From NCBI GenBank assembly GCA_963720355.1, contig CAVRFH010000004.1, positions 723,361 to 787,360 of the forward strand: a DNA stretch of 64,000 nucleotides. The letters are read 5' to 3'. Under the pieces are notes generated by a model, which made no database searches, was not told the DNA's origin, and saw only the letters and a list, made by a program, of their open reading frames with translations. Below, piece by piece: positions 5,750 through 63,641 of the stretch; the stretch's first letter is position 1; every line of letters begins with the position of its first letter. The position numbers and the translations under genes were made by a program. Origin of the DNA: an uncultured Chloroflexia bacterium (lineage in GTDB: Bacteria > Chloroflexota > Limnocylindria > Limnocylindrales > CSP1-4).

Positions 5750-6975
5750 TCAGATCACCCCGCGAGCGCGCAGGCCGGCCACCTCTGCTGCATCGAAGCC
5801 CGCCTCGGCGAGGACCTCGTCGGTGTGCTCGCCAAGGGTCGGTGGGGCGTTCCGGATCGCGCCCGGCGTGGCGGCGAAGCGGATCGGGATGCCGGCCTGG
5901 CGGAGGACACCGAACGCCGGGTGCTCGACCTCGACGGACATGTCCAGCGCGCGCGCCTCCGCCGAATCGAACGCGGTCGCGATGTCGGCGATCGGGCCGT
6001 TCGGGACCTCCGCCGCGTCGAGCGCCGCGGACCAGTCCGCCGTGGGTCGGCCAGCCAGCCGCTCCGCCAGGATCGGCCGCAGCTCGGCGCGATGCTCGAC
6101 CCGGTCGCCGTTGGTGGCGAAGCGCGGGTCGACGGCCAGCGCCGGCACGGCGAGGGCCGCGCACAGGCGCGCCCACTGGCGCTCGGACCCGACAGCCACG
6201 GCGAGCTCGCCGTCGGCGGTGGTGAAGGTCTCGTACGGGACGATGTTCGGATGCGCGTTCCCGAGCCGCCCGGGGGCCGGCCGGTCACGAACGCGTTCTG
6301 GGCCTGGTTGACCAGCACGGCCAGCGTCGAGCCGAGCAGGGAGACGTCGACGCGCTGACCGGCGTCCGCCCGGCCGATGAGCGCCGCCAGGATGCCGATC
6401 GCCCCGAACAGGCCCGTCACGACATCGCTGATCGCCACGCCGACCTTGGTCGGCCGGCCACCATCCTCGTCGGCTTCGCCGGTGATCGACATCAGGCCGC
6501 CGACAGCCTGGATCACGAAGTCGTAGCCCGGCCGATCGGCGCCGGGACCCGTGGTCCCGTAGCCGCTGATCGCGAGGTGGATGAGGCGCGGGTTGAGCGC
6601 CTCGAGCGCCGCGTCGTCGAAGCCGAGACGGGCCAGCCCGCCCGGGCGCAGGTTCTCGACCAGCACGTCGGCGCCGGCCAGGAGCCGGCGCAGCACGGCC
6701 CGACCCTCGTCCGCCCGGAGGTCGAGGCGGATCGCCCGCTTGTTGCGATTGACCGACAGGAAGTAGGCGGCCGTCCTGGTGCCCGCTTCGACGGCGCCGA
6801 CCCACGGCGGACCCCAGCCACGCGTGGCATCCCCATCGGGTGGTTCGACCTTGACGATGTCGGCGCCCAGATCGCCGAGGACCATGGTCGCGTACGGCCC
6901 GGCGAGGACCGTCGAGAGGTCGATGATCCGGATCCCGGCCAGCGGTCCCCGGGCGGTGGTGGCGTCGACCGGCAT
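5750..6975 (-). CDS. CoA-transferase family III (CaiB/BaiF-like) with a frameshift in a G5 run near 6293..6297
   Basis: The N-terminal part (GIRIIDLSTVLAGPYATMVLGDLGADIVKVE...QNAFVTG) is in the frame of ORF 5755..6975, and the C-terminal part (GNAHPNIVPYETFTTADGELAVAVGSERQW...) is in the frame of ORF 5750..6805. Adding one G to the run restores VTGRPPGRLGNAHPNIVPYE. Confidence 0.75.
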
Positions 6976-7006
6976 CGCGGCGATGGTAGCGCCGCGCCGG
7001 TCGTTC

Positions 7007-7762
7007 CTACGCCGCGGCGTGCGGGTCCGCGACGATGTCCCCGGTGAAGTCCTTCACGAGCGGGCCGTTGGTCTCGGACATGGGCAGGTCGAGGGTCGCG
7101 CCCTCTTCCTCGACCGCTGCGCCGATGCGCTCGATCGCATCGCGGTTGACGATGACCGCGCCGAGCCGCTGCGACTGCTGCATCCCGCCGATCGCGTACT
7201 CGATCACGGCGTCGGTCAGCGGCACCATCGGGGTGCGGTGGCGGATGCCGGCGACCGCGTCGAGACCCGGGAACGCATGCAGATAGCCGCGCACCAGGTA
7301 TGCCCCGATCTTGATCTCGACGAAGGTCTGCCGGGTGCGGGTGCGTCGTGCCCGGTCACCGCGCGGTCCCGTCGCGTTGACGATGAACAGCTCGTCGCGC
7401 GGGACCACCACCTCCGTGACCTCGACCGCGTCGGGCCGGTCGAGTGACTGGGCCATCACGTCGACCAGCCGTAGCTCCTCGTGGTCGTTGAGCATGTCGG
7501 TCAGGCGTTCCGCCTCGAGCCGCAGCCGACCCGACAGGATGCAGTCGGCCGCGAACGCGACGAAATCGACCATGGGTTGGAGGGGGGCCTCCCCCGGCTG
7601 GCCCCCCGTGGGATCTTCGTCGCCGTCGACGCCGGGTCGGTCGAAGAAGAGTGAGAGACGTCGTCCGAGACTTTCGATCATGGGGCTGATGGTGGCGCCG
7701 GCGGTCCTGATCCACGGGTGACCCGGAAGTACCTCGCCGCGCAGGGCGTTGCGACGCGACAC
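7007..7762 (-). CDS. Hypothetical protein (start may be the internal Met at 7681)
   Basis: Intact 251-aa ORF with coding-like codon usage; no family recognised. Confidence 0.45.
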   Translation of the reverse strand: MSRRNALRGEVLPGHPWIRTAGATISPMIESLGRRLSLFFDRPGVDGDEDPTGGQPGEAPLQPMVDFVAFAADCILSGRLRLEAERLTDMLNDHEELRLVDVMAQSLDRPDAVEVTEVVVPRDELFIVNATGPRGDRARRTRTRQTFVEIKIGAYLVRGYLHAFPGLDAVAGIRHRTPMVPLTDAVIEYAIGGMQQSQRLGAVIVNRDAIERIGAAVEEEGATLDLPMSETNGPLVKDFTGDIVADPHAAA

Positions 7763-7838
7763 CGGTGCACGCGTGCACGTCCTGCTCGAGGCATGACCCG
7801 AACGTACTACCGGAGCGCGGTCGCGCTAGCATCGGCCC

Positions 7839-8786
7839 ATGAGCAGTCAACACACTCCGACCCTGATGACGGTCCACGCCCACCCCGACGACGAGTCGAT
7901 CGGGACCGGCGGCACGATGGCCAAGGCCGTCGCGGTCGGCCGGCGCGTCGTGCTCGTGACCTGCACGCGTGGCGAGATGGGCGAGATCGTGGTCAAGGAC
8001 ATGGACACGCCCGAGAACCATCGGCGCCTCGGCGAGATCCGGGCCGGCGAGCTGGAACGGGCCATGGCCGCCCTGGGCGTCACCGAGTGGGAGAACCTCG
8101 GCTACCACGACTCGGACATGATGGGTCGCGCCGGCAATCGCGACCCACGGTGCTTCTGGCTGGCCGACCTCGACGAGGCGGCGCGCCGGCTGGTCTGGAT
8201 GATCCGCCGCTACCAGCCTGACGTCGTCACGACGTACAACGACTTCGGCGGGTACGGCCACCCCGACCATATCCGCACCCACGACGTCACCGTGCGGGCC
8301 TTCCCCCGTGCCGGCGACGCGGCCTGGTACCCGGAGCAGGTCGCCCCCGAGCACGGCGGGACGGGGCCGACGTCCGACGAGGGCGGCCTGGCCCCGTGGA
8401 CCCCGTCGAAGCTGTACGAGCAGGCCATCCCGGCCTCCGTCCGGACCGCCATGGCCGAGCGGATGAAGGAGCTCGACAAGCCGAACCCGTGGGCGCCGCC
8501 GCCCGATGCGACACCCGAGCAGCTCGCGGAGTTCGAGGCGTACCAGGCGCGGATGCTCGTGCCGGACGACGCCGTCACGACCTGGGTCGACATCTCGGGC
8601 GAGCCCCTCGAGCGCAAGTGGGACGCGATGCTCGAGCACGTGACCCAGATCGCCCCCGACATGCCGTTCATGACCTTCGGACTCGACGGCTGGCGCGAGC
8701 ACTGGTCGAAGGAGGCCTACATCCTGCGCGAGTCCACGGTCGACACGGCCAAGCCCGAGGACGACCTGTTCGCCGGTCTGGTCTGA
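7839..8786 (+). CDS. PIG-L family deacetylase/amidase (mycothiol S-conjugate amidase Mca or MshB-like)
   Basis: VHAHPDDES zinc-binding motif near the N-terminus and an overall length and layout typical of Mca/MshB. Confidence 0.75.
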   Translation: MSSQHTPTLMTVHAHPDDESIGTGGTMAKAVAVGRRVVLVTCTRGEMGEIVVKDMDTPENHRRLGEIRAGELERAMAALGVTEWENLGYHDSDMMGRAGNRDPRCFWLADLDEAARRLVWMIRRYQPDVVTTYNDFGGYGHPDHIRTHDVTVRAFPRAGDAAWYPEQVAPEHGGTGPTSDEGGLAPWTPSKLYEQAIPASVRTAMAERMKELDKPNPWAPPPDATPEQLAEFEAYQARMLVPDDAVTTWVDISGEPLERKWDAMLEHVTQIAPDMPFMTFGLDGWREHWSKEAYILRESTVDTAKPEDDLFAGLV

Positions 8787-8804
8787 TCTCGACGGCAGAC
8801 CCGC

Positions 8805-10469
8805 CTAGTACGGAAGCAGCCCGCGCGACGCGTCGAAGATCGGACCCATGACCGCCCGCCCGTCGCCGGCCGGATCGAGGAAATTGGGCTGGGCCTTGTC
8901 GAGGATGATGTGCGGCCGCATGCGGACCTGGCGAAGCTCGCTGCCGTGGAACGTCAGCTCGAGCGTGATCCCTTCCATCGTCGGTTCCGACCATGTCTGG
9001 TCGAAGACGAAGTTGCCGAGCGCGTACCAGATCGGCTTGCCCTTGTAGACCTCCATCGCGGCGGCGTAGTGGGCATGGTTGCCGATGATCATGTCGGCGC
9101 CGGCGTCGATGATGTCGCGGGCCAGCTGCTGCTGGCGCTCGAACGGGTCGTACTGGTACTCGACACCCCAATGCGGGAAGACGATGACGATGTCGGCGCC
9201 GGCCTCGCGGGCCGCCTTGATGCCGGTTTCAGCCCGACGCAGCGTCAGCTGGGAGCTGCCCGGGTCGTCGCGCTCCGCGTAATAGCCCTTGGCGATCGCG
9301 TCGAACGCCAGGACCGCGACCTGCACACCCTTGGCCTCAAGGATGGCCGGGGCACGGGCCGCGGCCAGGTCCTTGCCCGCGCCCGAGTACGTCAGACCGC
9401 GCTTCTTGAGGTTCGCGATCGTCTGCAGGATGCCGTTGTCGCCGGCGTCGCCGATGTGGTTGTTGGCGATCGAGACGTAGTCGATGCCGGCGTTGACGAG
9501 CCCGTCGATCATGCCCGGGTCGGCGGTAAAGACCGTGCCGCTCGTGTGCCAGCGGAATCTGGTCGGCGCCGGGTTCTCGAAGTTGGCCAGGGCGAGATCC
9601 GCCCCGGAGATGAGCGCGCGCATGGCCCCCTTGTCGCCAGTCCGGCGGGCCGTCGGGACGCGCCAGCCGAAGCTCGAGCAGCACGTCCGGCCGGTGATCT
9701 CGGCCGTGCCACCGTCGAACGGGAAATCGACGCCGCGACCACGCACCCGCACCGTCTGGTAGACGCCCCGGTCGAACAGGATGTCGCCGCCGGCGAAGAG
9801 GGTCCAGGTGGCGGCCGGGTCGAAGGCCGCTGCGTCGGCGGCCTGGGGTAGCGACGCCCGCAGCGTCCACCCCTCCGCCGACGTGGCCCGGTCGACCCCG
9901 AACAGCGTCCGATCGCCCCAGGCGAGGGCGCGCACGGCCGGCGTGACGTCGGTCGCCCGCACGAAGGCGAGCCGGTCGCGGTTGCGAGCCATGTCGCGGG
10001 TCAGCGTCGCGGCGTCGCGCGCGAGGACGAGCCGGTCCGGGTCGGACGGCCGCTCGACGCGGAGCGCCGCCAGGATCGCGTCGGCTTCGTCGGCGACCAG
10101 CTCCAGGGCGTCGTACCGGCGGCTCGTGCCCGCGAGGACGTCGGCGACCTCCTTGCGGTTCGTCGCGTCGATCGCGGCCCGGAACTGGGTGACCGGCACG
10201 ATCGGCACGTCGGCCACGGCCGCGGTCGGCACGGCGCTTGGCGTGGGTGTCGGCGTCGGCGCGGCCGACGATGTCGGCGTCGCGCTCGCCTCGGTCGGGC
10301 TCGGCGTAGCGCCGACGCCGAGCGGTCCGGATGGGGAAGCCTGCGGCGTCGGACTGCCGCCGAAGCCGATCTCGCCACCGGTCATCGGGATCGCGAGGCC
10401 CAGCACCAGCAGGCCGGCGATGACCAGCGCGGGCAGGCGGTTCGCGGTCAGCCGCGGCATCGGGCGCAT
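8805..10469 (-). CDS. CapA-family secreted metallophosphatase (poly-gamma-glutamate CapA-like), with N-terminal TM and a Pro/Thr/Ser linker
   Basis: C-terminal calcineurin-like block (IANNHIGDAGDNG, GNHAHY, VIVFPHWGVEY); signal/TM segment plus a low-complexity linker; no capB or capC nearby. Confidence 0.75.
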   Translation of the reverse strand: MRPMPRLTANRLPALVIAGLLVLGLAIPMTGGEIGFGGSPTPQASPSGPLGVGATPSPTEASATPTSSAAPTPTPTPSAVPTAAVADVPIVPVTQFRAAIDATNRKEVADVLAGTSRRYDALELVADEADAILAALRVERPSDPDRLVLARDAATLTRDMARNRDRLAFVRATDVTPAVRALAWGDRTLFGVDRATSAEGWTLRASLPQAADAAAFDPAATWTLFAGGDILFDRGVYQTVRVRGRGVDFPFDGGTAEITGRTCCSSFGWRVPTARRTGDKGAMRALISGADLALANFENPAPTRFRWHTSGTVFTADPGMIDGLVNAGIDYVSIANNHIGDAGDNGILQTIANLKKRGLTYSGAGKDLAAARAPAILEAKGVQVAVLAFDAIAKGYYAERDDPGSSQLTLRRAETGIKAAREAGADIVIVFPHWGVEYQYDPFERQQQLARDIIDAGADMIIGNHAHYAAAMEVYKGKPIWYALGNFVFDQTWSEPTMEGITLELTFHGSELRQVRMRPHIILDKAQPNFLDPAGDGRAVMGPIFDASRGLLPY

Positions 10470-10558
10470 TCTGCCAGAGGGCGTCGGCGCACCGGTCGCG
10501 GGGCAGAGGAACGCCCCGTCCGGGCGGGCGGACGGGGCGTAGGAAGATTCGAGCGTTG

Positions 10559-10635
10559 TGGCGGACCCGACCGGATTCGAACCGGCGATCTCCAGCGTGA
10601 CAGGCTGGCATGTTGGGCCGCTACACCACGGGTCC
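10559..10635 (-). tRNA. tRNA-Asp (anticodon GTC)
   Basis: Folded by hand: acceptor GGACCCG/CGGGTCC, anticodon loop CTGTCAC, T-loop TTCGAAT, discriminator G and an encoded CCA. Confidence 0.9.
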
Positions 10636-10705
10636 AGTTGCGGCGAGGCCGGACTATAGCAGAGGCATCATGCCTTGTCAGACGTCCCGCCTATACTCGC
10701 CCTCC

Positions 10706-11854
10706 ATGCCCGACCGCCCCATCGACCTGCGCAGCGACACCGTCTCGCGACCCACCGACGCGATGCGTCGGGCCATGGCCGGGGCCGTCGTCGGCGACGA
10801 CGTCTTCGGCGACGACCCGACCGTCATCGCCCTCGAGGAGCGCGCCGCCGACCTGCTCGGCAAGGACGCCGGCCTCTTCGTGGCCACCGGGACGATGGGC
10901 AACCTCGTGTCGATGATGGCCCACCTCGCCCGCGGCCAGGAGGTCATCGCCGGCGCCGAGCACCACCTCGTCATCGACGAGGCCGCCGGACACGCGGTCG
11001 TCGTGGGCGCGAGCGCGCGCACGATCGAGGACCGTCCGGACGGGACGCTCGACCCGGCCGCCATCGACGCCGCGTTCCGGGACCCGAATGACGTCCACGA
11101 GCCGCTGTCGGGTCTCGTGACGATCGAGAACACCCACGCCCATTCGATGGGTCGTCCGCTCTCCCCGGCCTACGAGCGCGAGGTCGCCACGATCGCCCGC
11201 CGGCACGGCGTCCCGATGCACATCGATGGGGCCCGCTTCTGGAATGCCGTGGTGGCCCAGCGCGACGCCGGCGTCACCGCTCGCGACCTGGCCGGTCCGG
11301 CCGACTCGGTGACCTTCTGCCTGTCCAAGGGCCTGGGTTGCCCGATCGGTTCGGTGGTGGTCGGGTCGACGGACTTCATCGCTCGGGCGCGCCGGGCGCG
11401 CAAGCTCGTCGGCGGCGGCATGCGCCAGGTCGGTGTCCTGGCCGCGGCCGGCATGGTCGCCCTGTCGGACGGCCCCGACGGCATGATCGACCGCCTGGCC
11501 GATGACCATGCCAACGCCCGACGGCTGGCCGAGGCGCTGGCCGACATGGACGGCGTGACGAGCGCGGGTGGCATCGCCCAGCCGGCTGCGGGGCGGCTCG
11601 ATCCCGGCCGTGTCGTCACGAACTTCGTCCTCTTCAAGGTCGAGCGCGACCGCAAGGCGTTCCTCGCGGGCCTCGCAGCGCGGAACGTCCTGATGGTGGA
11701 CTATGCCCATGGTCAGGTCCGCGCGGCGACGCATCACGACGTCTCGAGCGCGGACATCGACACGGTGATCCGGGCGACGCGCGAGGTGCTCGCCGAGACG
11801 ACCCGGATCGACCCCGTCGACCGGCCATCCGAGCGGATCGCGGCGACCGCCTGA
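10706..11854 (+). CDS. ltaE: Low-specificity L-threonine aldolase
   Basis: Beta-eliminating lyase fold with DGARFWNA and [14 protein letters not shown] (PLP lysine); start placed at ATG 10706 ([11 protein letters not shown]). Confidence 0.8.
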
Positions 11855-52589: not shown

Positions 52590-53048
52590 ATGTCGGACAA
52601 CCAGACCGCACCGTTCCGTCGCGCGGTCGTGGCCCTCAACGGCGGGCCGAGCGACGCGCGGATCGTCCGGCTCGTGGCCGACGCCGTCGCCCGGACCAAG
52701 GCGGAGTTGATCGCCGTCCACGTCGTCGAGATCGATTGGACCCTGCCGCTCGACGCCGATATCGCCGGGCGATCGGAGGACGTGCAGCGCGTGCTCGATT
52801 CGGCCGAGGCGATCGCCGAAAGCTTCAAGCTGACGATGGAGCCGGTGCTCCTGCAAGCCCGCGATGTCGCCGCAGCGATCGTCGACGAGGCCACCGAGCG
52901 GGGCGCCGACCTCCTGGTCGTCGGGCTCCCGTACCGGAAGCGATTCGGCGGGGAGTTCGCGATCGGCCGGACGATCCCCTACATCCTGCAGAACGCGCCG
53001 TGCGCCGTCTGGGTCGTGCGCGAGCCGATGAGTGAGGAAGCATCGTGA
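52590..53048 (+). CDS. Universal stress protein (UspA family)
   Basis: About 152 aa; AVVALNGGPSD...LIAVHVVE...GADLLVVGLPYR...PCAVWVV. Confidence 0.8.
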   Translation: MSDNQTAPFRRAVVALNGGPSDARIVRLVADAVARTKAELIAVHVVEIDWTLPLDADIAGRSEDVQRVLDSAEAIAESFKLTMEPVLLQARDVAAAIVDEATERGADLLVVGLPYRKRFGGEFAIGRTIPYILQNAPCAVWVVREPMSEEAS

Positions 53049-53608
53049 AGATCGTCATCGTCGGTTGCGGGCGCGTCGGCGCCTCCGCCGCGGAGCTGTG
53101 GGATCGGGCCGGCCACGAGGTGATCGTGCTCGACGTGTCCACGCGGGCGTTCGAGCGTCTGCCGTCGTCCTTCGGCGGTACCGCCGTGCGCGGCGATGGC
53201 ACCGATGAGGACGTGCTGCGTCGCGCGGGCATGGAGGGGGCCGACATCTTCCTGGCCCTCACCGAGGGCGACAACCGCAACGTCATGGCGGCCCAGCTCG
53301 CCGTCGAGGCCTTCGAGGTCGAGCGCGTCGTCGCCAAGATCAACGACCCCGTCCGGGCCGCGGCCTACGCCGAGCTCGGCATCGCCACCCTGTGCCGGAC
53401 CGGGCTGATGGTCGATGCCGTCACGGCCCACCTGGGCTTCCCCTCGTCGGGCCTGCCCGGCATGCTCGCCCCGAGCGGCCAGCATCCAGGCGGCGACCAT
53501 CACGACCGACCCGACGAGGACGGTGGTCCGGGTTCGGAGGCGGGCGCCGCACCCCGTGCGTCATCGGATCCCGTATCGGCCGCGCCCGGCGCGGCATCGG
53601 AGGCCTGA
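53045..53608 (+). CDS. trkA: TrkA-N (NAD-binding) potassium-uptake regulatory subunit
   Basis: MKIVIVGCGRVGASAA Rossmann motif; the start overlaps the usp stop; a disordered C-terminal tail. Confidence 0.75.
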   Translation: MKIVIVGCGRVGASAAELWDRAGHEVIVLDVSTRAFERLPSSFGGTAVRGDGTDEDVLRRAGMEGADIFLALTEGDNRNVMAAQLAVEAFEVERVVAKINDPVRAAAYAELGIATLCRTGLMVDAVTAHLGFPSSGLPGMLAPSGQHPGGDHHDRPDEDGGPGSEAGAAPRASSDPVSAAPGAASEA

Positions 53609-53610
53609 CC

Positions 53611-54291
53611 GTGTTCGTTCTCGTCGTCGGTGGTGGCAAGGTCGGCTACTACCTTGCCAAGGAGCTGCTCGACTCGGGTCACGAGGTGGCCCTCATGGAG
53701 AAGGACCCGACCCGGGCCCGACAGATCGCCGACGAGATCGGGTCGATCGTCATCCCACACGACGGCTGCGAGGGCAAGTACCTCGCCGAGGCCGGCTCGA
53801 ACCGGGCCGACGTCGTCGCGGCGGTCACCGGCGACGACGAGGACAACCTCGTCATCTGCCAGATGGCCAAGCACCATTTCGACGTGCCGCGGACCATCGC
53901 CCGAGTCAACAACCCGAAGAACGAGACGCTCTTCCGCCACCTCGGCGTCGATGAGCTGATCAGCCCGACTCGGATGATCCTCGGCTCGATCGAACAGGAC
54001 ATCCCGGTCCACGAGCTGCTCCATTTGGCGACCCTCGGCGAGGGCGAGCTCGAGCTGATCGAGGCGCACCTCCAGTCGGGCTCGCCGGCGATCGGCCGGG
54101 CGCCGCGCGACCTCGAGATCCCCGAGGGCTGTTCGCTGTTCGCGGTCATCCGGGATGGCATCGCGACGCCGCTCCGACCCGACACGATCCTGAACGAGGG
54201 CGACAAGGTCATCGCTATCGGCAAGCAGGAGTGCGAGGCCCTGCTCCACGGGCAGCTGATCGGCGATCCGGAGGCCACGACCGCCCGCTGA
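53611..54291 (+). CDS. trkA: TrkA-N plus TrkA-C potassium-uptake regulatory subunit; the pair resembles ceoB/ceoC
   Basis: GTG start; VFVLVVGGGKVGYYLAKEL Rossmann motif; C-terminal RCK_C-like region (LIEAHLQSGSPAIGRAPRDLEIPEGCSLFAVIRDG). Confidence 0.8.
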   Translation: MFVLVVGGGKVGYYLAKELLDSGHEVALMEKDPTRARQIADEIGSIVIPHDGCEGKYLAEAGSNRADVVAAVTGDDEDNLVICQMAKHHFDVPRTIARVNNPKNETLFRHLGVDELISPTRMILGSIEQDIPVHELLHLATLGEGELELIEAHLQSGSPAIGRAPRDLEIPEGCSLFAVIRDGIATPLRPDTILNEGDKVIAIGKQECEALLHGQLIGDPEATTAR

Positions 54292-54334
54292 GCCATCGGC
54301 GGCGGATCGGTCGCCACTCGGGGGGCGTAAGACT

Positions 54335-54365
54335 CTTGACAACATGATTGTCAGGGTTCTAGCAT
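54335..54365 (+). promoter_or_regulatory. Promoter (TTGACA-18 nt-TAGCAT) with an embedded 7-N7-7 inverted repeat CTTGACA-acatgat-TGTCAgG, a HAIR-like MerR/HspR-type operator
   Basis: Perfect -35 hexamer at 54336..54341 and a -10-like TAGCAT at 54360..54365; the inverted repeat matches its own reverse complement at 6 of 7 positions and has the same geometry as the HspR-associated repeat CTTGAGT-N7-ACTCAAG. Confidence 0.4.
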
Positions 54366-54405
54366 CTCCCCATGTCACCCAAGCTCCACATCGAGCCTGC
54401 GACCG

Positions 54406-54852
54406 ATGGCGAATCCTCGAACGGCACGGGGGGCGACCGCAGCCGCGGCGCCGCCGGCGCCGACCTCGACACCCGGGCCTGAGCCGGTGGCCTCGCCGCG
54501 ACCGGAGCGCGACCCGGAGCGACCCGTCTACGTTATCAGCGTGGCGGCGAGCATCGTCAGCGTCCATCCGCGCACGTTGCGGATCTACGAGGACGAGGGG
54601 CTCCTCTGCCCCGCGCGGACGCCCACCAATATCCGCCTGTACAGCGAGAACGACATCCGTCGGATCCTCTGGATCCGGCACCTCACCCGGGAGCTCGGGG
54701 TGAACCTCGCCGGCATCCGGATCCTCTTCGAACTCGAGGAGCGCCTCGGCGCACGGATCCTCGAGGCCCTCTATGCAGAAGGCACGGGCGATGCGTCGGC
54801 CATGCGGCCGACCGAACCGGTGCTCCGCGATCGATCGACGGCCGACCGATGA
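54406..54852 (+). CDS. hspR: MerR-family heat-shock repressor HspR-like
   Basis: VYVISVAASIVSVHPRTLRIYEDEGLLCPARTPTNIRLYSENDIRRILWIRHLTRELGVNLAGIRILFELEERL is a MerR HTH of the HspR type; a Pro/Ala-rich N-terminus, so the true start may be later. Confidence 0.7.
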   Translation: MANPRTARGATAAAAPPAPTSTPGPEPVASPRPERDPERPVYVISVAASIVSVHPRTLRIYEDEGLLCPARTPTNIRLYSENDIRRILWIRHLTRELGVNLAGIRILFELEERLGARILEALYAEGTGDASAMRPTEPVLRDRSTADR

Positions 54853-54929
54853 CCGACCGACCGTCCAGACCCACGTCAGCGAGGCGCCGCCGCGCCGACA
54901 TCGACACCGCACGTCAGGAGAAGCCACCG

Positions 54930-57428
54930 ATGGCAAAGCGACCGTCCAACCCGGTCGACGACACGCAGCAGAACGGGACCGCGACGGGACCCCGCGACCT
55001 GCCCCTCGTCGCACTCCGGGAGACGGTCATCTTCCCGGAGATGATCGTCCCGCTCCAGGTGGGCCGCGAGAAGAGCGTCAACGCGCTCAACGCCGCGGTC
55101 GCCGAAGGCGGACCCATCGCACTCGTCACCCAGCGTCAGGCCGAGCAGGAGGACATCAACGATCCTGCCGAGCTCTACACGATCGGCACGCTGGCCAAGA
55201 TCGCCCAGGTCGTCCAGCTCCAGGACGGCACCGTCCGTGCCATCGTCCAAGGCCAGTCGCGACTGCGCCTGCGGGCGTTCAGCCAGGCAGAACCGTATCT
55301 CCGGGCGTCCATCGAAGAGCTGCCCGACGAGACGCCGGACGGTCTCGAGGTCGAGGCGCTCATGCGCACGGTCCAGGCCCAGATCGAGCAGTACGTCGCC
55401 AACGGTGCGCCCGTGCCGCCGGAGGCGGCCGTCGCCGCGCGCAACATCAGCGAGCCCGGGCTGCTCGCCGACATGGTCGCGTACAGCCCCGACATGACCA
55501 CCGAGCAGCGCCAGGAGCTGCTCGAGACGATCGACGTCGTGGAGCGCCTCAAGCTCGTCTCGAACTTCCTGGCCCACCAGGTCGAGATCCTCGAGCTGAA
55601 GGGGCGCATCCAGTCCGAGGTCAAGTCCGAGATGGACAAGACCCAGCGCGAGTACATCCTCCGCGAGCAACTCAAGGCGATCCAGCGTGAGCTCGGCGAG
55701 GACGATCCGCAGCAGGCCGAGATCAACGAGCTGCGCGAGAAGGTCGAAGCGGCGGGCATGCCCGACGAGATCAAGGCACGGGCGATCAAGGAAGTCGACC
55801 GGATGAGCCGGATCCCGTCCGCCTCGCCCGAGGTCGGCGTCATCCGGACGTACGTGGACTGGCTGATCAGCCTGCCGTGGAACGTCGCGACGGATGACCA
55901 GCTCGACATCAAGGAAGCCGCGCGCATCCTCGACGAGGACCACTACGGGCTCGAGAAGATCAAGGAGCGCATCCTCGAGTACCTCGCGGTGCGCACGCTG
56001 GCGGACGAGATCCGCAGCCCGATCCTCGCCTTCGTCGGACCCCCCGGCGTGGGCAAGACCAGCCTGGGCAAGAGCATCGCCCGGGCGATGGGCCGCAAGT
56101 TCGTCCGGATGAGCCTCGGCGGCATCCACGACGAGGCCGAGATCCGCGGTCACCGGCGCACGTACATCGGCGCCCTGCCCGGCCGCATCATCCAGAGCAT
56201 CAAGACGGCCGGGTCGAACAACCCGGTGTTCATGCTCGACGAGGTCGACAAGATCGGGATGGACTTCCGGGGCGACCCGTCGTCCGCCCTGCTCGAGGTG
56301 CTCGACCCGGAGCAGAACAACAGCTTCCAGGACAACTACCTGGAGGTGCCGTTCGACCTGAGCAAGGCGCTGTTCATCGCGACGGCCAACCTGCTCGACC
56401 CGATCCCGGCCGCGCTGCGCGACCGGATGGAGATCGTCCAGCTGCCCGGCTATACCGAGACCGAGAAGATCGAGATCGGCAAGCGCTTCCTCATCCCCAA
56501 GCAGATGACGAACCACGGCCTCACGCCCAAGACGATCGAGATCACCGATGGGGCGATGACCGAGCTCGTGCGCTCGTACACGCACGAGGCCGGCGTCCGG
56601 AACCTCGAACGCGAGATCGCCAACGTCATGCGCAAGGTCGCCCGGCAGGTCGCCGAGGGCCGCAAGCGCAAGACCGTCGTCGACGAGAAGAAGCTGGCCG
56701 AGTTCCTCGGGCCGCAGCGCTTCGAATACGGCGAGCTCGAGGCGGAGGACCAGATCGGCTCCGCGACGGGCCTGGTGGTGACCGAGGTCGGTGGCGACGT
56801 CGTCGCCATCGAGGTGACCCGCATGGAGGGCAAGGAGGACTTCATCCTCACGGGCCAGCTGGGCGAGGTCATGCGCGAGAGCGCCCGTGCCGGTCTGTCC
56901 TGGACGCGAGCGCACGCCCGCGACCTGGGCGTCAATCGCGAGATCTTCGAGCGCAACACGCTGCACATCCACGTCCCGGCGGGAGCCATCCCCAAGGACG
57001 GGCCGTCGGCCGGGATCACGATGGCCACGGCCATCGTCAGCGCGCTCTCGGGCATCCCCGTCCGCAAGGATGTGGCGATGACCGGCGAGATCACGCTCCG
57101 TGGCCGCGTGCTGCCGATCGGCGGGCTCAAGAGCAAGATCCTGGCCGCGCACCTGTCGGGTGCCAAGACCGTGATCATCCCCAGGAAGAACGAGAAGGAC
57201 CTGCGCGATATCCCCGACGAGATCCGCAAGTCCATGAAGCTCATCCTGGTCGACACCATGGAGCAGGTCCTCGAGGCGGCCCTCCGGCGCAAGCCGAAGC
57301 CCCTCGAGGCCGAGCCCCCGAAGGTCCTCAAGGGCGGTGACCCACTCGACCCCGAGCCCGAGGCCCGGGTCCGACGGACCAACTTCCCACCTTCGGATCA
57401 GCCCCCGGTCGTCGTCGAGAGGCACTGA
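54930..57428 (+). CDS. lon: ATP-dependent Lon protease (endopeptidase La)
   Basis: LON N-domain, AAA+ module ([24 protein letters not shown]) and protease domain ([19 protein letters not shown], catalytic Ser); start placed at ATG 54930. Confidence 0.9.
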
Positions 57429-57479
57429 CCACGGGATCGCCGACTACGCCGTCGGTCCTGACCCACACGGGTAGAAACG

Positions 57480-58538
57480 ATGGAGTACCGCGACTATTAC
57501 GCCGTCCTTGGGGTTCCGAGGACCGCGTCACAGGCCGACATCAAGAAGGCGTTCCGGAAGCTCGCCCGGAAGCATCACCCTGACACCAACACGGGCGATG
57601 CCGAGGCCGAGCGGAAGTTCAAGGCCGTCAACGAGGCGAACGCCGTGTTGTCGGATCCGGACAAGCGCACGCTCTATGACCGACTGGGCAAGGATTGGGA
57701 GGCCTACGCCCGTGCCGGCGCGACCGCCGGTTCGGCGGCGGGCCGTGCAGGCGGGCCCGCCGCTGGCGGGCCGTCCGGTGGGTACGCCGGCTTCGGCGGG
57801 CCGGGCGGCGGTGTCCGGTACGAGTTCCGCACGGCCGGCGACGCCGGCGACTTCAGCGACTTCTTCCAGGCGTTCTTCGGCGGGGCATCGGAGCCCCTCG
57901 CCGGTACCGACCGCGGTCGTCGGCCCACCGGCGGCCCCACGTTCGAGGAGATTCTCGCCGGTATGGGCATCGACGCCGACGGCCGGCCGGCCGGGACGAC
58001 CCGGCAGACCAGCGCACCGGCCCGCCGCCCATCGGCGGAGGCGATCGCCGACATCACCCTCGACGAGGCGTACCACGGCACGAGCCGGCTGATCGACATC
58101 GAGGGCAAGCGCCTCGAGGTGACGATCCCCAAGGGCGCCGACACCGGGACGCGCATCCGCCTGACGGGCAAGGCGCCGGGCGGCGGCGACCTCTTCGTCG
58201 TCGTCCGCCAGGAGCCGCATCCCGTCTTCACCCGGCGCGGCGCCGATCTCGAGCGGGAGCTGCCCCTGACCCTCCGCGAGGCGCTGCTCGGCGGCGACGT
58301 CCACGTGCGAACCCCGAAGGGTCGCGTGCTGCTGACCGTCCCGGCCGGGACCCAGACGGGCCGGACCTTCCGGCTCACCGGCCAGGGCATGCCCCGCTTC
58401 AAGACCGACGGCCACGGCGACCTGTACGCCAAGGCCAAGGTCATCATCCCGACCGATCTCTCCGCGGAGGCCCGCGCCGCCGCGGACGAGCTGTTCCGGC
58501 TGGTCGACCAGCCCGATCCCCGAGCACGAGAGACCTGA
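57480..58538 (+). CDS. J-domain co-chaperone lacking the CxxCxGxG zinc finger (CbpA/DnaJ-like)
   Basis: J domain with HPD ([30 protein letters not shown]), a Gly-rich linker and DnaJ C-terminal beta domains; no Cys-rich zinc module. Confidence 0.8.
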
Positions 58539-58542
58539 ACCG

Positions 58543-61299
58543 ATGCAACTCGACCAATTCACCCAGAAGGCCCAGGAGGCCATCGTCGCCGCCCAGCAGA
58601 CCGCCCAGCGGCTGGAATCGCCGATCCTCGACGCCGAGCACCTGCTCAGCGCCCTCATCGAGCCCGACGACGGGATCCCGGCCGAGACGCTGCGACGCCT
58701 CGGGGTCGACCTCCCCGGGTTCCGCGGCGAGCTCGCGGCCGCGCTGTCGCGTCGTGCCCGGATCACGGGCGGCTCGCTCACGCTCGACCCGCGCGCCAAG
58801 GGCGTGTTCGATCGCGCCGAGGCCGAGGCGCGCCGGCTCGGCGACGAGTACGTCTCGACCGAGCACCTGCTGCTCGGGACCGCCGATGCCGGGGGCGATG
58901 CGCAGACCCTGCTCGAGGAGCACGCAGCCGGCAAGGAGGCCATCCTCCAGGCCCTCCAGAGCGTGCGTGGTGGACAGCGCGTCACGTCGCCCAACCCGGA
59001 AGGGACGTACGCCGCGCTCGAGAAGTACGGCCGCGACCTCACGACCGAGGCCCGCGCGGGCAAGCTCGATCCGGTGGTCGGCCGCGACGAGGAGATCCGG
59101 CGCGTCATCCAGGTGTTGTCGCGCCGCACGAAGAACAACCCGGTCCTCATCGGCGAGCCCGGCGTCGGCAAGACGGCGATCGCCGAGGGTCTCGCGCAGC
59201 GCATCGTGCGGGGCGACGTCCCGGAGGGCCTCAAGGGCAAGCGCGTCGTCGCACTGGACCTCGGAGCGCTGATCGCCGGCGCCAAGTTCCGTGGCGAGTT
59301 CGAGGAGCGGCTCAAGGCCGTGCTCAAGGAGATCAAGGACAGCGACGGCCAGGTCGTCCTGTTCATCGACGAGCTCCACACCGTCGTCGGGGCCGGCGCC
59401 GCAGAGGGCGCCATGGACGCGTCCAACCTGCTCAAGCCGATGCTCGCCCGCGGCGAGCTGCACACGATCGGGGCGACCACGCTCGACGAATACCGCAAGT
59501 ACATCGAGAAGGATGCCGCGCTCGAGCGTCGCTTCCAGCCGGTCCTCGTCGACCAGCCGTCGGTCGAGGAGACGATCAGCATCCTGCGCGGCCTGCGCGA
59601 GCGGTACGAGGTCCATCACGGCGTCCGGATCACCAATTCCGCCCTCGTCGCCGCGGCGACGCTCTCCGATCGCTACATCAGCGACCGGTTCCTGCCCGAC
59701 AAGGCGATCGATCTCGTCGACGAGGCGGCATCCCGGCTACGCATGGAGATCGACTCGATGCCGATCGAGATCGACGAGCTCGAGCGCCGCCGGATCCAGC
59801 TCGAGATCGAGCGCGAGGCGCTGCGCAAGGAGACCGACGAGGCGTCGAAGACCCGGCTCGAGGCCCTTGAGAAGGAGCTCGCCGACCTCGAGGAGGAGGT
59901 CGGCGGCCTGAAGCAGCGCTGGGAGGCCGAGACGTCGGCGATCGCCGCGACCCGGGCGACGCGTACCGAGCTCGAGGCGCTCGCGACGCGCATCGAGCAG
60001 GCCGAGCGCGAAGCCGACTTCGCGACGGCGGCCGAGCTGAAGTACGGGACCCAGAAGACGCTCCAGGACACGCTCGCCGAGCAGGAAGCCGCGCTCGCGG
60101 CGCTGCAGGGCCCCGGCACCCTCCTGAAGGAGGAGGTCGGCGCGGACGACATCGCGGAGATCGTCGGCGCCTGGACCGGGATCCCCGTCAGCCGCCTGAT
60201 GGAAGGCGAGACGGCGAAGCTGATCCGCATGGAGGAGCGGCTCCATGACCGCGTCGTCGGCCAGGACGAGGCCATCCAGGCCGTGTCCGACGCCGTCCGC
60301 CGGGCACGGGCCGGGCTGAAGGACCCGGGTCGCCCGATCGGCTCGTTCCTGTTCCTCGGCCCGACCGGGGTCGGCAAGACGGAGCTCGCTCGTGCGCTCG
60401 CGGAGTTCCTGTTCGACGACGAGAGCGCGATGGTCCGGATCGACATGAGCGAGTACATGGAGAAGTTCGCCGTGTCGCGCCTGCTCGGGGCGCCCCCGGG
60501 CTATGTCGGCTACGAGGAGGGCGGCCAGCTGACCGAGGCGGTCCGTCGCCGGCCATACCAGGTCGTCCTGCTCGACGAGATCGAGAAGGCCCACCCGGAC
60601 GTGTTCAACGTGCTGCTCCAGGTCCTCGACGACGGCCGCCTGACCGACGGGCAGGGCCGGACCGTCGACTTCAAGAACAGCGTCGTGATCATGACCAGCA
60701 ACATCGGCTCCGCTGCGATCGCGGCGACCGGCGCTCGCGCCGGTGACGCCGCCTACGAGGCGATGAAGCGCGACGTCACCGAGGCGCTCCGATCGCAGTT
60801 CCGTCCCGAGTTCCTGAACCGTGTCGACGAGGTCATCGTGTTCCACGCGCTGACCGATGCCGACCTGGCCGCGATCGTCGATCTCCTGCTCGCCGACCTC
60901 GATCGGCGCTTGGCGAGCCAGGACATCCAGCTCGAGCTGACGGCATCCGCGAAGGCGCTCATCGTGCGCGAGGGTACGGACCCCGCGTACGGGGCGCGAC
61001 CGCTCAAGCGGACGATCCAGCGCCTCGTCGAGAACCAGCTGGCGCGTGCCCTGGTCGCCGGCGAGTTCCGGCCCGGCGACACCGTCACGGCCGACGCCGA
61101 CCTGGGGTCGGGCACGCTGATCTTCTCGACCGAGGGGGCGACCGTCGTCGCCGAGGGCGGTCGGCGGGACGCTCGTTCGACGCCGGCCGGGGATGCCACG
61201 GTCGGGGCCGGCGCCGGCGGCCGGCGCGGTCGTTCCGGATCGCCCCTGGATCTCCCGGCGACGCGCCCCGAGCGCGACGACGGCGAGCTCGTCAACTAG
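58543..61299 (+). CDS. clpB: ATP-dependent chaperone ClpB
   Basis: Clp_N; NBD1 ([17 protein letters not shown]); a long coiled-coil middle domain; NBD2 ([18 protein letters not shown]); 918 aa, intact. Confidence 0.9.
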
Positions 61300-61316
61300 G
61301 CCCGGCCGGCCGGCGG

Positions 61317-61988
61317 ATGCGCTTCGAGGCGGCCGTCGCACGACTCGAGCCGCTGCCCGACCCGCTCCCGCCGCCGCTCGATGCGCTGCTCCCGGTCCGC
61401 CTCGACGGGCTCGACTGGCGGGCCACCCCCGTCCGCGACGAGCTGCCGGGCCGGCCGGCGGCCGTGCTCGTGCTGCTGTACCCGGACGCCGACGGCGAGG
61501 CGCGCCTCGTCCTGATCGAACGGCCGACCCGCGACGGGCAGCATCACTCTGGCGAGGTGAGCTTCCCGGGTGGCAAGGCCGAGCCCGAAGACGACGATGC
61601 CGCCGCGACCGCCCTGCGCGAGGCGGCTGAGGAGGTCGGGCTGGACGCCGACATCGCCGACGTCCGGGTGGTCGGGCGGCTCGACCGGCTGTGGATCCCG
61701 GTGAGCGATTTCGCGGTGACGCCGATCGTGGCGCTCGCCGCGCGGCGCCCGCAGATGCGGCCGGCACCCGCCGAGGTCGTGCGCATCCTCGAGCCGCCCG
61801 TCGATGCGTTCCTTCCGCACGCGCCCGTCGACATGGTCGAGCGCACGATCCGCGGCTGGGACCTGCGCTACGGCCAGTACGCGATCGACGGGTTGGCGGT
61901 GTGGGGGGCGACGGCCCGGGTGCTCAGCCAACTCGGGGCCGTCCTCGGGGCGGCCGACGCCGCACGGCCGGCGCCGTCGGGGAACTAG
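61317..61988 (+). CDS. Nudix hydrolase (CoA-pyrophosphatase NudL-like)
   Basis: Nudix box GGKAEPEDDDAAATALREAAEEVGL and the upstream LLYPD...LVLIER pattern of CoA pyrophosphatases. Confidence 0.7.
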   Translation: MRFEAAVARLEPLPDPLPPPLDALLPVRLDGLDWRATPVRDELPGRPAAVLVLLYPDADGEARLVLIERPTRDGQHHSGEVSFPGGKAEPEDDDAAATALREAAEEVGLDADIADVRVVGRLDRLWIPVSDFAVTPIVALAARRPQMRPAPAEVVRILEPPVDAFLPHAPVDMVERTIRGWDLRYGQYAIDGLAVWGATARVLSQLGAVLGAADAARPAPSGN

Positions 61989-62123
61989 CGCCACCGTCCC
62001 ACCGTCGAAGCGGCGGCCCGACGACGCACTAGTGGCGTCCCACCGGGACCTGCGGACCGCCCAGGTGGTCCGCCCAAGTGCCCGGGTGCCGGTCCCCATG
62101 GCATCCGGACGGGAGGTTGCGCG

Positions 62124-63641
62124 ATGCGCACGCCACTCCTGTCCCTGGTCGCCGTCGCCCTCGTGGCGAGCGCGTGTTCCGGGGCTCCCACGACCGGCTA
62201 CGCCGATCCGCCGCCGGACCCCGGCCACCACCGTCCCACCGCCGATCCGTGGCCCGAGGAACCTGCCCCGACCCCGTACGACGGGGTGACGTACCAGGAT
62301 CGGGGCGTCAACCCGTACGTCGACCCGGCCGAGGACCGGGTGTCCACCTTCGCCCTCGACGTCGACACCGCCTCGTACACCATCGCCCAGCGCTACATCG
62401 ACGACGGCTACCGACCGGATCCCGCCAGCGTCCGGGTCGAGGAATGGGTCAACGCGTTCGATCAGGGATACCGTCGGCCGGTCGACGGCACGTTCGCGAT
62501 CCTCGCGGACGGTGGGCCGACGCCGTTCACCGACCGCGACGAGGTCCTGCTCCGGATCGGGCTGCAGGCACGCGACATCCGCGATCGGGCCCGCGCCGAT
62601 ACCGCGCTGACGTTCGTCATCGACACGTCCGGCTCGATGGAGCGCGAGGGCCGCCTCGAGCTTGTCAAGGACGCGCTCGGGGAGCTCGTCACCGGCCTGC
62701 GGCGGGGCGACACCGTGGCCATCGTCACGTTCGGCGACGAGGGGCGGGTCGTCCTCGAGCCGACGCCGGCGACCCACACCGAGGAGATCCTCGACGTCAT
62801 CGGACGACTGCGGACGAGCGGGTCGACCAATCTCGAGCACGGCCTCCAGCTCGGCTACGAGCTGGCCCGTTCCTCGCTGACCGAGAACGGCATCGACCGG
62901 GTCGTCCTCGCATCCGACGGAGTGGCCAACGTCGGCCTGACCGACCCCGAGGGCATCCTCGAGAGCATCCGCCGCGATGCGGCCGCCGGCATCGAGCTCG
63001 TGTCGGTCGGTGTCGGGATGGGCAACTACAACGACGTCCTGCTCGAGCAGCTCGCCGACCATGGCGACGGGTTCTATGCCTACGTGAACGGACCGGACGA
63101 GGCCCGACGGCTGTTCAGCGAGGATCTCACCGGCACCCTGCAGACGGTCGCGCTCGACGCCCGCGCGCAGATCGAGTTCGACCCGGATGTCGTCGCCGCC
63201 TACCGGCTCGTCGGCTACGAGAACCGCGACGTCCCGGACCAGCAGTTCACCGACGAGGGCATCGACGCCGGCGCGATCGGCGCCGGCCACAGCGCGACGG
63301 CCCTGTACGCCATCCGCCTCGCCGAGGACGCCGGGCAGGCTCATCTCGCGACCGTCCGCCTGCGCTGGACCGACCCGGACAGCGGCCGCGTCGACGAGAT
63401 CGCCAGCGAGGTCCGGACGAACGACCTGTCCCGGCACTTCCAGGGTACCGACCCGTTCTTCCGGTTCGACGCCGTCGTCGCTTCGACCGCCGAGGTCCTT
63501 CGCGGCAGCCCGTGGGCCGGCCATCTCGCCCTCACCGACATCGCCGAGGTGGCGTACCAGGAGACCGAGGGGCTGCCGCCCACCGACGAGGTCCACGCGT
63601 TCCTCGATCTGCTCGACCGCCTCGCCCGCATGGACGGCTAG
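62124..63641 (+). CDS. von Willebrand factor A-domain lipoprotein (YfbK-like)
   Basis: Lipobox LVASACSG; VWA MIDAS motif (FVIDTSGSMEREGRLE ... T ... D); C-terminal region typical of the YfbK family. Confidence 0.75.
   Translation: MRTPLLSLVAVALVASACSGAPTTGYADPPPDPGHHRPTADPWPEEPAPTPYDGVTYQDRGVNPYVDPAEDRVSTFALDVDTASYTIAQRYIDDGYRPDPASVRVEEWVNAFDQGYRRPVDGTFAILADGGPTPFTDRDEVLLRIGLQARDIRDRARADTALTFVIDTSGSMEREGRLELVKDALGELVTGLRRGDTVAIVTFGDEGRVVLEPTPATHTEEILDVIGRLRTSGSTNLEHGLQLGYELARSSLTENGIDRVVLASDGVANVGLTDPEGILESIRRDAAAGIELVSVGVGMGNYNDVLLEQLADHGDGFYAYVNGPDEARRLFSEDLTGTLQTVALDARAQIEFDPDVVAAYRLVGYENRDVPDQQFTDEGIDAGAIGAGHSATALYAIRLAEDAGQAHLATVRLRWTDPDSGRVDEIASEVRTNDLSRHFQGTDPFFRFDAVVASTAEVLRGSPWAGHLALTDIAEVAYQETEGLPPTDEVHAFLDLLDRLARMDG

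Follow-up and report, generated by a model that had tools for sequence, protein, structure and literature searches.

This study concerns a 64-kb stretch of DNA (hereafter the window; coordinates are positions within it) from the genome of a soil Chloroflexota bacterium of the Limnocylindria, in which the genes hspR, lon, a dnaJ-like gene and clpB lie head to tail, all on the + strand. We consider it probable, on the basis of sequence comparisons, that these genes form a polycistronic protein-quality-control operon autoregulated by the MerR-family heat-shock repressor HspR, and its operator appears to be a lineage-specific re-specification of the actinobacterial HspR-associated inverted repeat (HAIR). 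In Streptomyces, HspR represses dnaK, clpB and lon via HAIR, CTTGAGT-N7-ACTCAAG (PMC6102357), and in Deinococcus radiodurans chaperone and protease genes have HAIR sites to which HspR binds (PMC6888292). A first-pass annotation of the window had proposed an autoregulated supra-operon with an altered operator, a proposal that gains support from the gene order in 80 related genomes and from a palindrome conserved in 79 of the 80.

The palindrome in front of hspR and its distribution

The first-pass annotation had placed the sole strong promoter of the cluster upstream of hspR and had read there an inverted repeat, CTTGACA-N7-TGTCAGG, with HAIR geometry and a variant half-site, and both observations hold. 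A scan of positions 53000-63000, which covered the sigma-70 consensus only, returned a single promoter-like site, TTGACA-18-TAGCAT (shuffle mean 0.3), and the palindrome covers its -35 hexamer and spacer. The repeat is better written as CTTGACAA-N5-TTGTCAgG, a 16-base palindrome but for one mismatch; no other site in the window matches it at up to one mismatch, and none appeared in any of 100 shuffles. It agrees with HAIR in its 7-N7-7 geometry, N7 spacing and outer bases (CTTGA/TCAAG), and four of its five differences from HAIR fall symmetrically on the two innermost bases of the arms, where GT has become CA on one side and AC has become TG on the other. In keeping with the earlier reading, no canonical HAIR was found before lon or clpB, nor anywhere else in the window at up to two mismatches, and the same search was negative in 1.39 Mb of related loci. 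Inside the cluster there was no second palindrome (64 kb searched) and no second promoter-like site (53-63 kb), and the claim that internal terminators are lacking is borne out by a scan of 53000-63000 in which three terminator-like matches were found against 2.2 expected from shuffles, all within coding sequence.

Other regulatory elements were also sought. The CIRCE element (HrcA), TTAGCACTC-N9-GAGTGCTAA, had no match at up to three mismatches in the 64-kb window, and Rfam models (ROSE, FourU and others) gave nothing relevant at E values up to 1, either in window positions 53000-63000 or in 5800-10800 of the related locus L001. The site does not have the layout of a promoter that a MerR protein activates by distorting the DNA, with an over-long spacer of 19-20 bp and a dyad centred in it: the spacer is 18 nt long and the dyad is centred on its 5' part and takes in the -35 hexamer.

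The comparison set consisted of the corresponding loci (~20 kb each, 1.39 Mb in total) of 80 species-level Limnocylindria genomes, all assembled from metagenomes; individual loci and contigs are referred to by L numbers. The palindrome occurs once per locus in 79/80 genomes, always before hspR or hsp20-hspR, and in the sole exception (L016) the contig begins inside hsp20 and the promoter region is missing. The motif-aligned consensus is (A)CTCTTGACAAYRNNRTTGTCARGGTTCTAGCAT, which may also be given as (A)CTCTTGACAAYRNNRTTGTCARG then GTTCTAGCAT. The conserved stretch spans about 38 bp; each position of the two arms and of the -10 hexamer carries ~2 bits of information, compared with 0.1-0.3 bits a few bases outside. 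The -10 hexamer stands at the same offset, as TAGCAT in 55/80 sites and as TAGGAT in 13/80. Because the arms are invariant without covariation while the 5-nt centre varies, the motif is most readily understood as a protein-binding site and not as an RNA helix. The operator is, as first described, an altered one; it is not peculiar to this locus, being class-wide and common to HspR operons of the Armatimonadota type.

The exceptions to a single copy per operon are informative. L063 has 207 nt, including a strong hairpin, between its dnaJ-like gene and clpB, and a second copy of the motif there, CTTGACAATAATGTTGTCAAC, is followed by its own -10 hexamer and, 7 nt past that hexamer, by the start codon that opens clpB. 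The metagenome contig L111 has the same layout with an extra copy before a separated clpB, and both extra copies have their own -10 hexamer with a start codon 6-7 nt past it. The motif also stands before dnaK-dnaJ-hspR-clpB (L150), dnaJ-like-hspR-clpB (L173) and, on an Armatimonadota chromosome, dnaK-hsp20-dnaJ-hspR (L201); in a multiple alignment the HspR proteins of these three share 35-43% identity with that of the window, and the named relatives of the L150 protein are Armatimonadota. The second copies before clpB and these three other hspR operon types tie the motif to the regulon and not to one promoter; throughout these operons it is associated exclusively with hspR and chaperone genes. 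M. tuberculosis dnaK, which served as the control, has CTTGAGc-N7-ACTCAtc 63 nt upstream and no variant site. The HspR proteins found with the variant operator have VHP(R/Q)TLR and a wing P-x-R-x-x-x-N-x-R-L-Y where the mycobacterial protein has MHAQTLR and, as its wing, GGGRRY, a correlation between residues and operator type seen in the alignment.

A metagenome scan with CTTGACAA-N5-TTGTCA gave at least 120 matches. Among the matches listed, most were chance, low-GC gut, marine or phage-like contigs; L087, L100, L111, L116, L123, L131, L150 and L173 were informative, L093 and L198 were ambiguous, and none was a Limnocylindria dnaK or groEL promoter. Two further loci are recorded here as observations in their own right. 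An Anaerolineae contig (L203, JBHIDP010000011.1, 230-11624) has a hybrid operator, CTTGACA-N7-ACTTAAG, and a unit of dnaK-grpE-dnaJ, three HtrA-type serine protease genes, hspR and clpB, with a divergent small MerR gene and hsp20 upstream. On an unrelated metagenome contig of 41% GC (L081, 809-1319), a repeat that contains CTTGACAAGAGACTTGTCAA(C/G), a perfect palindrome, comes three times at spacings of 180 and 312 nt; we take it as probably an iteron-like array or some other repeated operator, unconnected with hspR.

Genes, junctions and the start of hspR

The coordinates of the cluster are given in Table 1. The product of 54406-54852 matches MerR_1 at 3e-17, and its top NCBIfam matches are two HspR models (E = 4e-25, 87.5 bits), the next non-HspR model scoring 36.6 bits. 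It shares 35% identity with M. tuberculosis HspR, with the helix-turn-helix and GVNLAG motifs invariant in a multiple alignment. Its homologues, mostly 121-128 residues long, carry the name HspR at JGI and NCBI, and the close ones are labelled Chloroflexota or Candidatus Limnocylindrales. No HspR structure was found in the PDB, where the nearest solved relatives are GlnR and TnrA (E = 3e-12); an identity of the regulator as TnrA/GlnR, raised by these matches, was ruled out by the family scores (TnrA 27 bits) and the genomic context. An alternative start of lon at ATG 54849, overlapping the hspR stop, was dropped, as ATG 54930 is backed by the conserved Shine-Dalgarno sequence and by the Lon alignments of all relatives. 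The dnaJ-like product has zero cysteines and no DnaJ_CXXCXGXG match, and since its sequence contains no cysteine it has no zinc finger. ClpB ends in a Gly/Arg/Ala-rich extension of ~65 residues (855-918; window 61105-61299), past residue 853 at which the TIGR03346 match stops; the length of the extension is kept in relatives, in which tblastn alignments run to residue 918.

Table 1. Positions of the genes and control elements of the hspR cluster in the window.
Feature	Position	Strand	Remarks
-35 hexamer TTGACA	54336..54341	+	Same as left operator half-site; invariant in relatives
Putative HspR operator palindrome	54335..54355	.	CTTGACAA-N5-TTGTCAgG; overlaps promoter
-10 hexamer TAGCAT	54360..54365	+	18-nt spacer; 4 nt past palindrome
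hsp20 remnant open reading frame	54372..54482	+	36 codons plus stop; ATG 6 nt past -10 hexamer
hspR	54487..54852 (likely); annotated 54406-54852, 148 aa	+	MerR-family heat-shock repressor
GC-rich stem-loop position, hspR-lon spacer	54875..54899	+	Degenerate in window (9/11 pairs); without U tract
lon Shine-Dalgarno AGGAGA	54916..54921	+	8 nt before ATG 54930; kept in all loci
lon (ATP-dependent protease La)	54930..57428	+	TIGR00763, 953 bits
DnaJ-type co-chaperone, class B, CbpA-like	57480..58538	+	J domain, Gly/Phe-rich linker, DnaJ_C
clpB disaggregase	58543..61299	+	TIGR03346, 1340 bits; 4 nt past dnaJ-like stop
Nudix hydrolase (CoA pyrophosphatase-like)	61317..61988	+	17 nt past clpB; candidate fifth cistron

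The head-to-tail arrangement of the four genes on one strand, with gaps of 77, 51 and 4 nt, is as the first-pass annotation had it, the 77-nt gap between hspR and lon holding because the lon start is taken as ATG 54930. The order trkA-(hsp20)-hspR-lon-dnaJ-like-clpB-nudix is kept in the 80 loci wherever the contig reaches, L078 excepted (DASYTG010000012.1, 13104-14777), where clpB is missing from the cluster and the Nudix gene directly follows the dnaJ-like gene. The hspR stop TAG lies within the lon Shine-Dalgarno sequence in 31 genomes (gap 8-13 nt), 33 of the 59 loci that could be measured, the window among them, have 1-5 nt between the dnaJ-like gene and clpB, and the gap from clpB to the Nudix gene has a median of 19 nt, the Nudix gene being syntenic in every locus that reaches far enough. 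With gaps so small, or overlapping, these tight junctions leave no room for promoters, and their sequence suggests translational coupling.

The two wider spacers vary among the relatives. A spacer of ~77 nt between hspR and lon is present in 23 genomes (window included), and the relatives carry in it an 11-bp GC stem-loop with both-side changes at 7/11 pairs and 85% of cells paired; RNAalifold returned 3 pairs only, and the covariation was seen after the 11-bp helix had been specified by hand. The hairpin of the window folds no better than shuffles (z = +0.72), and an attenuator at this position was dropped for that reason. The spacer between lon and the dnaJ-like gene is bimodal, 51 nt in the window and 110-199 nt in 29 relatives with a palindromic insert (L001 9491-9634, L009 12945-13084, L028 12969-13165 and 26 others). 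The insert is a GC-rich imperfect palindrome of ~100 nt, present in either orientation, that has GAGCGAGCGCAC...GTGCGTGAGCGA as its core and folds at -60 to -114 kcal/mol. It occurs elsewhere too (L036 ~20225, L069 ~20164, L073 ~20222), is REP- or miniature-transposon-like, and had no Rfam match; the window has no insert between lon and the dnaJ-like gene, and the flanking bases alone remain.

The start and leader assumed for hspR in the first-pass annotation need revision: a remnant of hsp20 intervenes between promoter and gene, GTG 54487 is a likelier start than ATG 54406, and a leader is likely absent. The remnant consists of the start region of hsp20 joined to its last ~34 codons, stops at TGA 54480-82 and is in a different frame from hspR. 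When the window was aligned with its closest relatives, L001 and L002, the promoter was 97% identical to that of L002, and the sequence from 54382 onward aligned with the 3' end of hsp20 in both (L001 5936-6640, L002 6559-7270). Because promoter and hsp20 3' tail both align to the relatives, ~0.5 kb of hsp20 has been deleted in the window. A full-length hsp20 lies between trkA and hspR in 29 relatives, and the loss appears recurrent, since five further genomes (L015, L018, L025, L056, L079) retain only fragments, N-terminal in four. That ATG 54372 is out of frame through a homopolymer error (G6 run 54426-54431) was ruled out, as the reading frame aligns with the 3' end of hsp20.

GTG 54487 is 4 nt past the remnant's stop and opens VASPRPERDPERPVYVIS, the conserved HspR N-terminus; the N-terminus so obtained, V/M-ASPRPERDPERPVYVIS, fits the leaderless homologues, and L001 has the same stop-4 nt-GTG spacing after an intact hsp20. 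From these alignments GTG 54487 is the likely start, and the annotated ATG 54406 is probably an over-extension into the overlapped hsp20 tail. The first intact gene past the operator is hspR, whose GTG lies 152 nt beyond the first base of the palindrome (54335). An ATG or GTG lies 5-8 nt past the -10 hexamer in 73/80 sites, and in 25 genomes the start codon 6-7 nt past it is the in-frame hspR start, with an N-terminus like MASPRP(D/E)RDP..PVYVIS. With start codons at this distance in 73/80 sites a leaderless mRNA is likely, and the transcript of the operon is probably leaderless. At the predicted transcription start (window 54372-54377; +35 to +42 from the motif start) the 80 loci keep the sequence RTGTCC, also in genomes in which hspR starts elsewhere; in hsp20 genomes it opens either an upstream open reading frame of 17-20 codons that runs to the hsp20 start codon or an N-terminal extension in frame with hsp20. 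The conserved sequence may reflect a start-site preference, a translated leaderless upstream open reading frame or an extra HspR half-site (TGTCC resembles TGTCA).

Upstream of the cluster lie potassium-uptake and stress genes, namely an APC-type permease gene, a Usp gene and two TrkA-domain genes ending at 54291. Downstream of the Nudix gene there is a structured gap of 135 nt, followed by a VWA/YfbK-like gene. The gap (61989-62123) contains GC-rich hairpins (-72.8 kcal/mol, z = -2.4) without a U tract; the operon may have its 3' end here. A tblastn search of the window and the 80 loci with approximate E. coli DnaK, GroEL and GroES query sequences gave no match.

A model of the circuit and its alternatives

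In the model that we favor, one sigma-70-type promoter would drive a leaderless mRNA carrying the hsp20 remnant, hspR, lon, the class-B J-protein gene, clpB and possibly the Nudix gene, which may be a fifth cistron; a single transcript is the most economical reading for the window. An HspR dimer would sit on the palindrome CTTGACAA-N5-TTGTCAAG, of which the left arm coincides with the -35 hexamer and the right arm occupies the spacer, so that bound HspR would exclude RNA polymerase. By analogy with the HspR systems of Streptomyces, Mycobacterium, Deinococcus and Helicobacter (PMC6102357, PMC6888292), heat or misfolding would free HspR, either because a chaperone co-repressor is lost or through intrinsic instability. 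The freed promoter would then transcribe the whole unit, repressor included, giving negative feedback. Candidates for the release trigger are DnaK as co-repressor, the co-encoded CbpA-type J-protein, Lon and intrinsic thermolability of HspR. We infer, then, that HspR binds the palindrome, that the unit is heat-inducible and begins at the predicted transcription start, and that all of its cistrons are co-transcribed.

Several points weigh against this model, among them the regulator's HspR score below the NCBIfam equivalog cut-off of 105 bits and the departures of its operator from HAIR. It is feasible that the genes are co-linear without forming one transcription unit, being divided by hidden internal promoters or by hairpin processing or attenuation, so that the palindrome controls hspR (and hsp20) alone. 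The spacer between lon and the dnaJ-like gene, 51 nt here, reaches up to 199 nt in relatives with the insert, and the hspR-lon spacer of 23 genomes has the 11-bp GC hairpin with compensatory changes. L063 and L111, with an independent operator and promoter before clpB, show that this gene can gain a promoter of its own, and the promoter scans were limited to the sigma-70 consensus, so that there may be internal promoters of non-consensus type. We nevertheless judge such a division unlikely. The window shows no second palindrome or promoter-like site, its spacers fold at the level of shuffled sequence, and the 8-13 nt gap between hspR and lon (31 genomes) and the 1-5 nt gap before clpB (33/59) leave no promoter room. 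Moreover, that an uncoupled clpB gains the same operator implies that clpB normally depends on the upstream one.

Two other alternatives concern the palindrome itself. It might be the operator of another transcription factor encoded elsewhere, HspR using other sites. Five of the 14 bases specified in the HAIR consensus differ at the window site, and the regulator's nearest solved relatives are GlnR and TnrA and no characterised HspR. This we consider quite improbable, as the motif travels with hspR in 79/79 genomes and recurs in three further operon architectures in which hspR is the sole regulator gene common to all, as the 1.39 Mb around these hspR genes hold no canonical HAIR, and as length, N7 spacing and outer CTTGA/TCAAG bases match HAIR. 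That the inverted repeat acts as RNA, as a terminator hairpin of trkA or a 5' structure, seems to us the most improbable of all, to the point that we give it very little weight. An extended hairpin is indeed predicted for positions 54292-54371 (-35.4 kcal/mol, z = -3.3), and no other terminator is evident between trkA and the promoter, a circumstance that also tells against an isolated operon, as transcription from upstream could read through. Against an RNA-level role, however, it is the loop that varies, both arms being invariant and free of compensatory changes; the left arm matches the -35 consensus in full and has a conserved -10 hexamer at a fixed distance from it; there is no U tract after the repeat, the extended pairing of the window is not kept in relatives, and elsewhere the motif stands before clpB and dnaK, with its own -10 hexamer each time.

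Beyond the autoregulated operon, we offer a wider proposal tentatively and with some doubt. HspR of the Limnocylindria and Armatimonadota-type lineages may have co-evolved a new specificity in which the half-site is the -35 hexamer TTGACA, so that promoter and operator would coincide in sequence and, in the Limnocylindria, this one element would control a leaderless transcript joining the repressor to Lon, the CbpA-type J-protein and ClpB. The J-protein as a modulator of HspR, on the pattern of H. pylori, or Lon as its protease would close the loop without dnaK in the unit, and differences in the recognition helix and wing, HP(R/Q)TLR/NxRLY versus HAQTLR/GGRRY, would act as the specificity switch.

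Significance and comparison with known systems

The Limnocylindria are among the most abundant uncultured Chloroflexota of soil and freshwater, and to our knowledge nothing is known of the regulation of their stress response. The circuit itself (HspR, a HAIR-type palindrome, and clpB, lon and J-protein targets) is well known. New are the symmetric re-specification of the half-site that makes it the -35 hexamer, the conservation of the operator across a whole uncultured class and in Armatimonadota-type operons, and what is probably the fusion of hspR, lon, a class-B J-protein gene and clpB in one leaderless unit; we found no description of the operator variant or of the operon in the searchable literature. 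The locus provides a concrete, testable model in which the main machinery of disaggregation and proteolysis is governed by a single operator and repressor and expressed from a single transcript. The natural pair of operator and repressor variants (TTGAGT versus TTGACA half-sites) could be used to map how HspR reads DNA, and the consensus could be used to predict HspR regulons in metagenome-assembled genomes. What the locus shows is a neat variation, found throughout the lineage, on a familiar circuit, and it leaves the general picture of HspR-type heat-shock control unchanged.

TnrA and GlnR, the MerR-family nitrogen regulators of Bacillus, have the operator TGTNA-N7-TNACA. The core TGACA-N7-TGTCA described here has the same 17-bp length and N7 spacing, and the third base of the half-site differs. 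The wing of these regulators, PARTxxNxRL(Y/F)S, resembles that of the window HspR, and there is no glutamine-synthetase context here.

The regulons of Streptomyces and Mycobacterium resemble the window in having a MerR-type HspR in an operon that it should repress, in the targets clpB, lon and a J-protein gene, and in a 21-bp 7-N7-7 palindrome with CTTGA...TCAAG outer bases that overlaps the promoter. They differ in the half-site, TTGAGT there and TTGACA(A) here, and in the place of hspR, which comes last in their dnaK-grpE-dnaJ-hspR operon and first or second here. In those genera lon and clpB are at separate loci, whereas here they belong to one unit, which is without dnaK and grpE, has a J-protein without zinc finger and would probably be transcribed as a leaderless mRNA.

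A closer parallel to the J-protein is found in the cbpA-hspR operon of Helicobacter pylori and Campylobacter jejuni, in which a zinc-finger-less DnaJ homologue is co-operonic with hspR and autoregulation acts through a HAIR-like repeat (PMC6102357). There cbpA comes first and the operon is without lon or clpB, whereas here the order is reversed and lon lies between hspR and the J-protein gene. The HspR of H. pylori protects 70-80 bp around a degenerate HAIR, compared with a conserved stretch of about 38 bp here, and modulation of HspR by CbpA, known in that system, is merely possible in the window. The regulon of D. radiodurans shares with ours its occurrence outside the Actinobacteria; its targets are dispersed and HAIR-type sites are reported for them, whereas the Limnocylindria cluster brings its targets together in one unit with an altered half-site.

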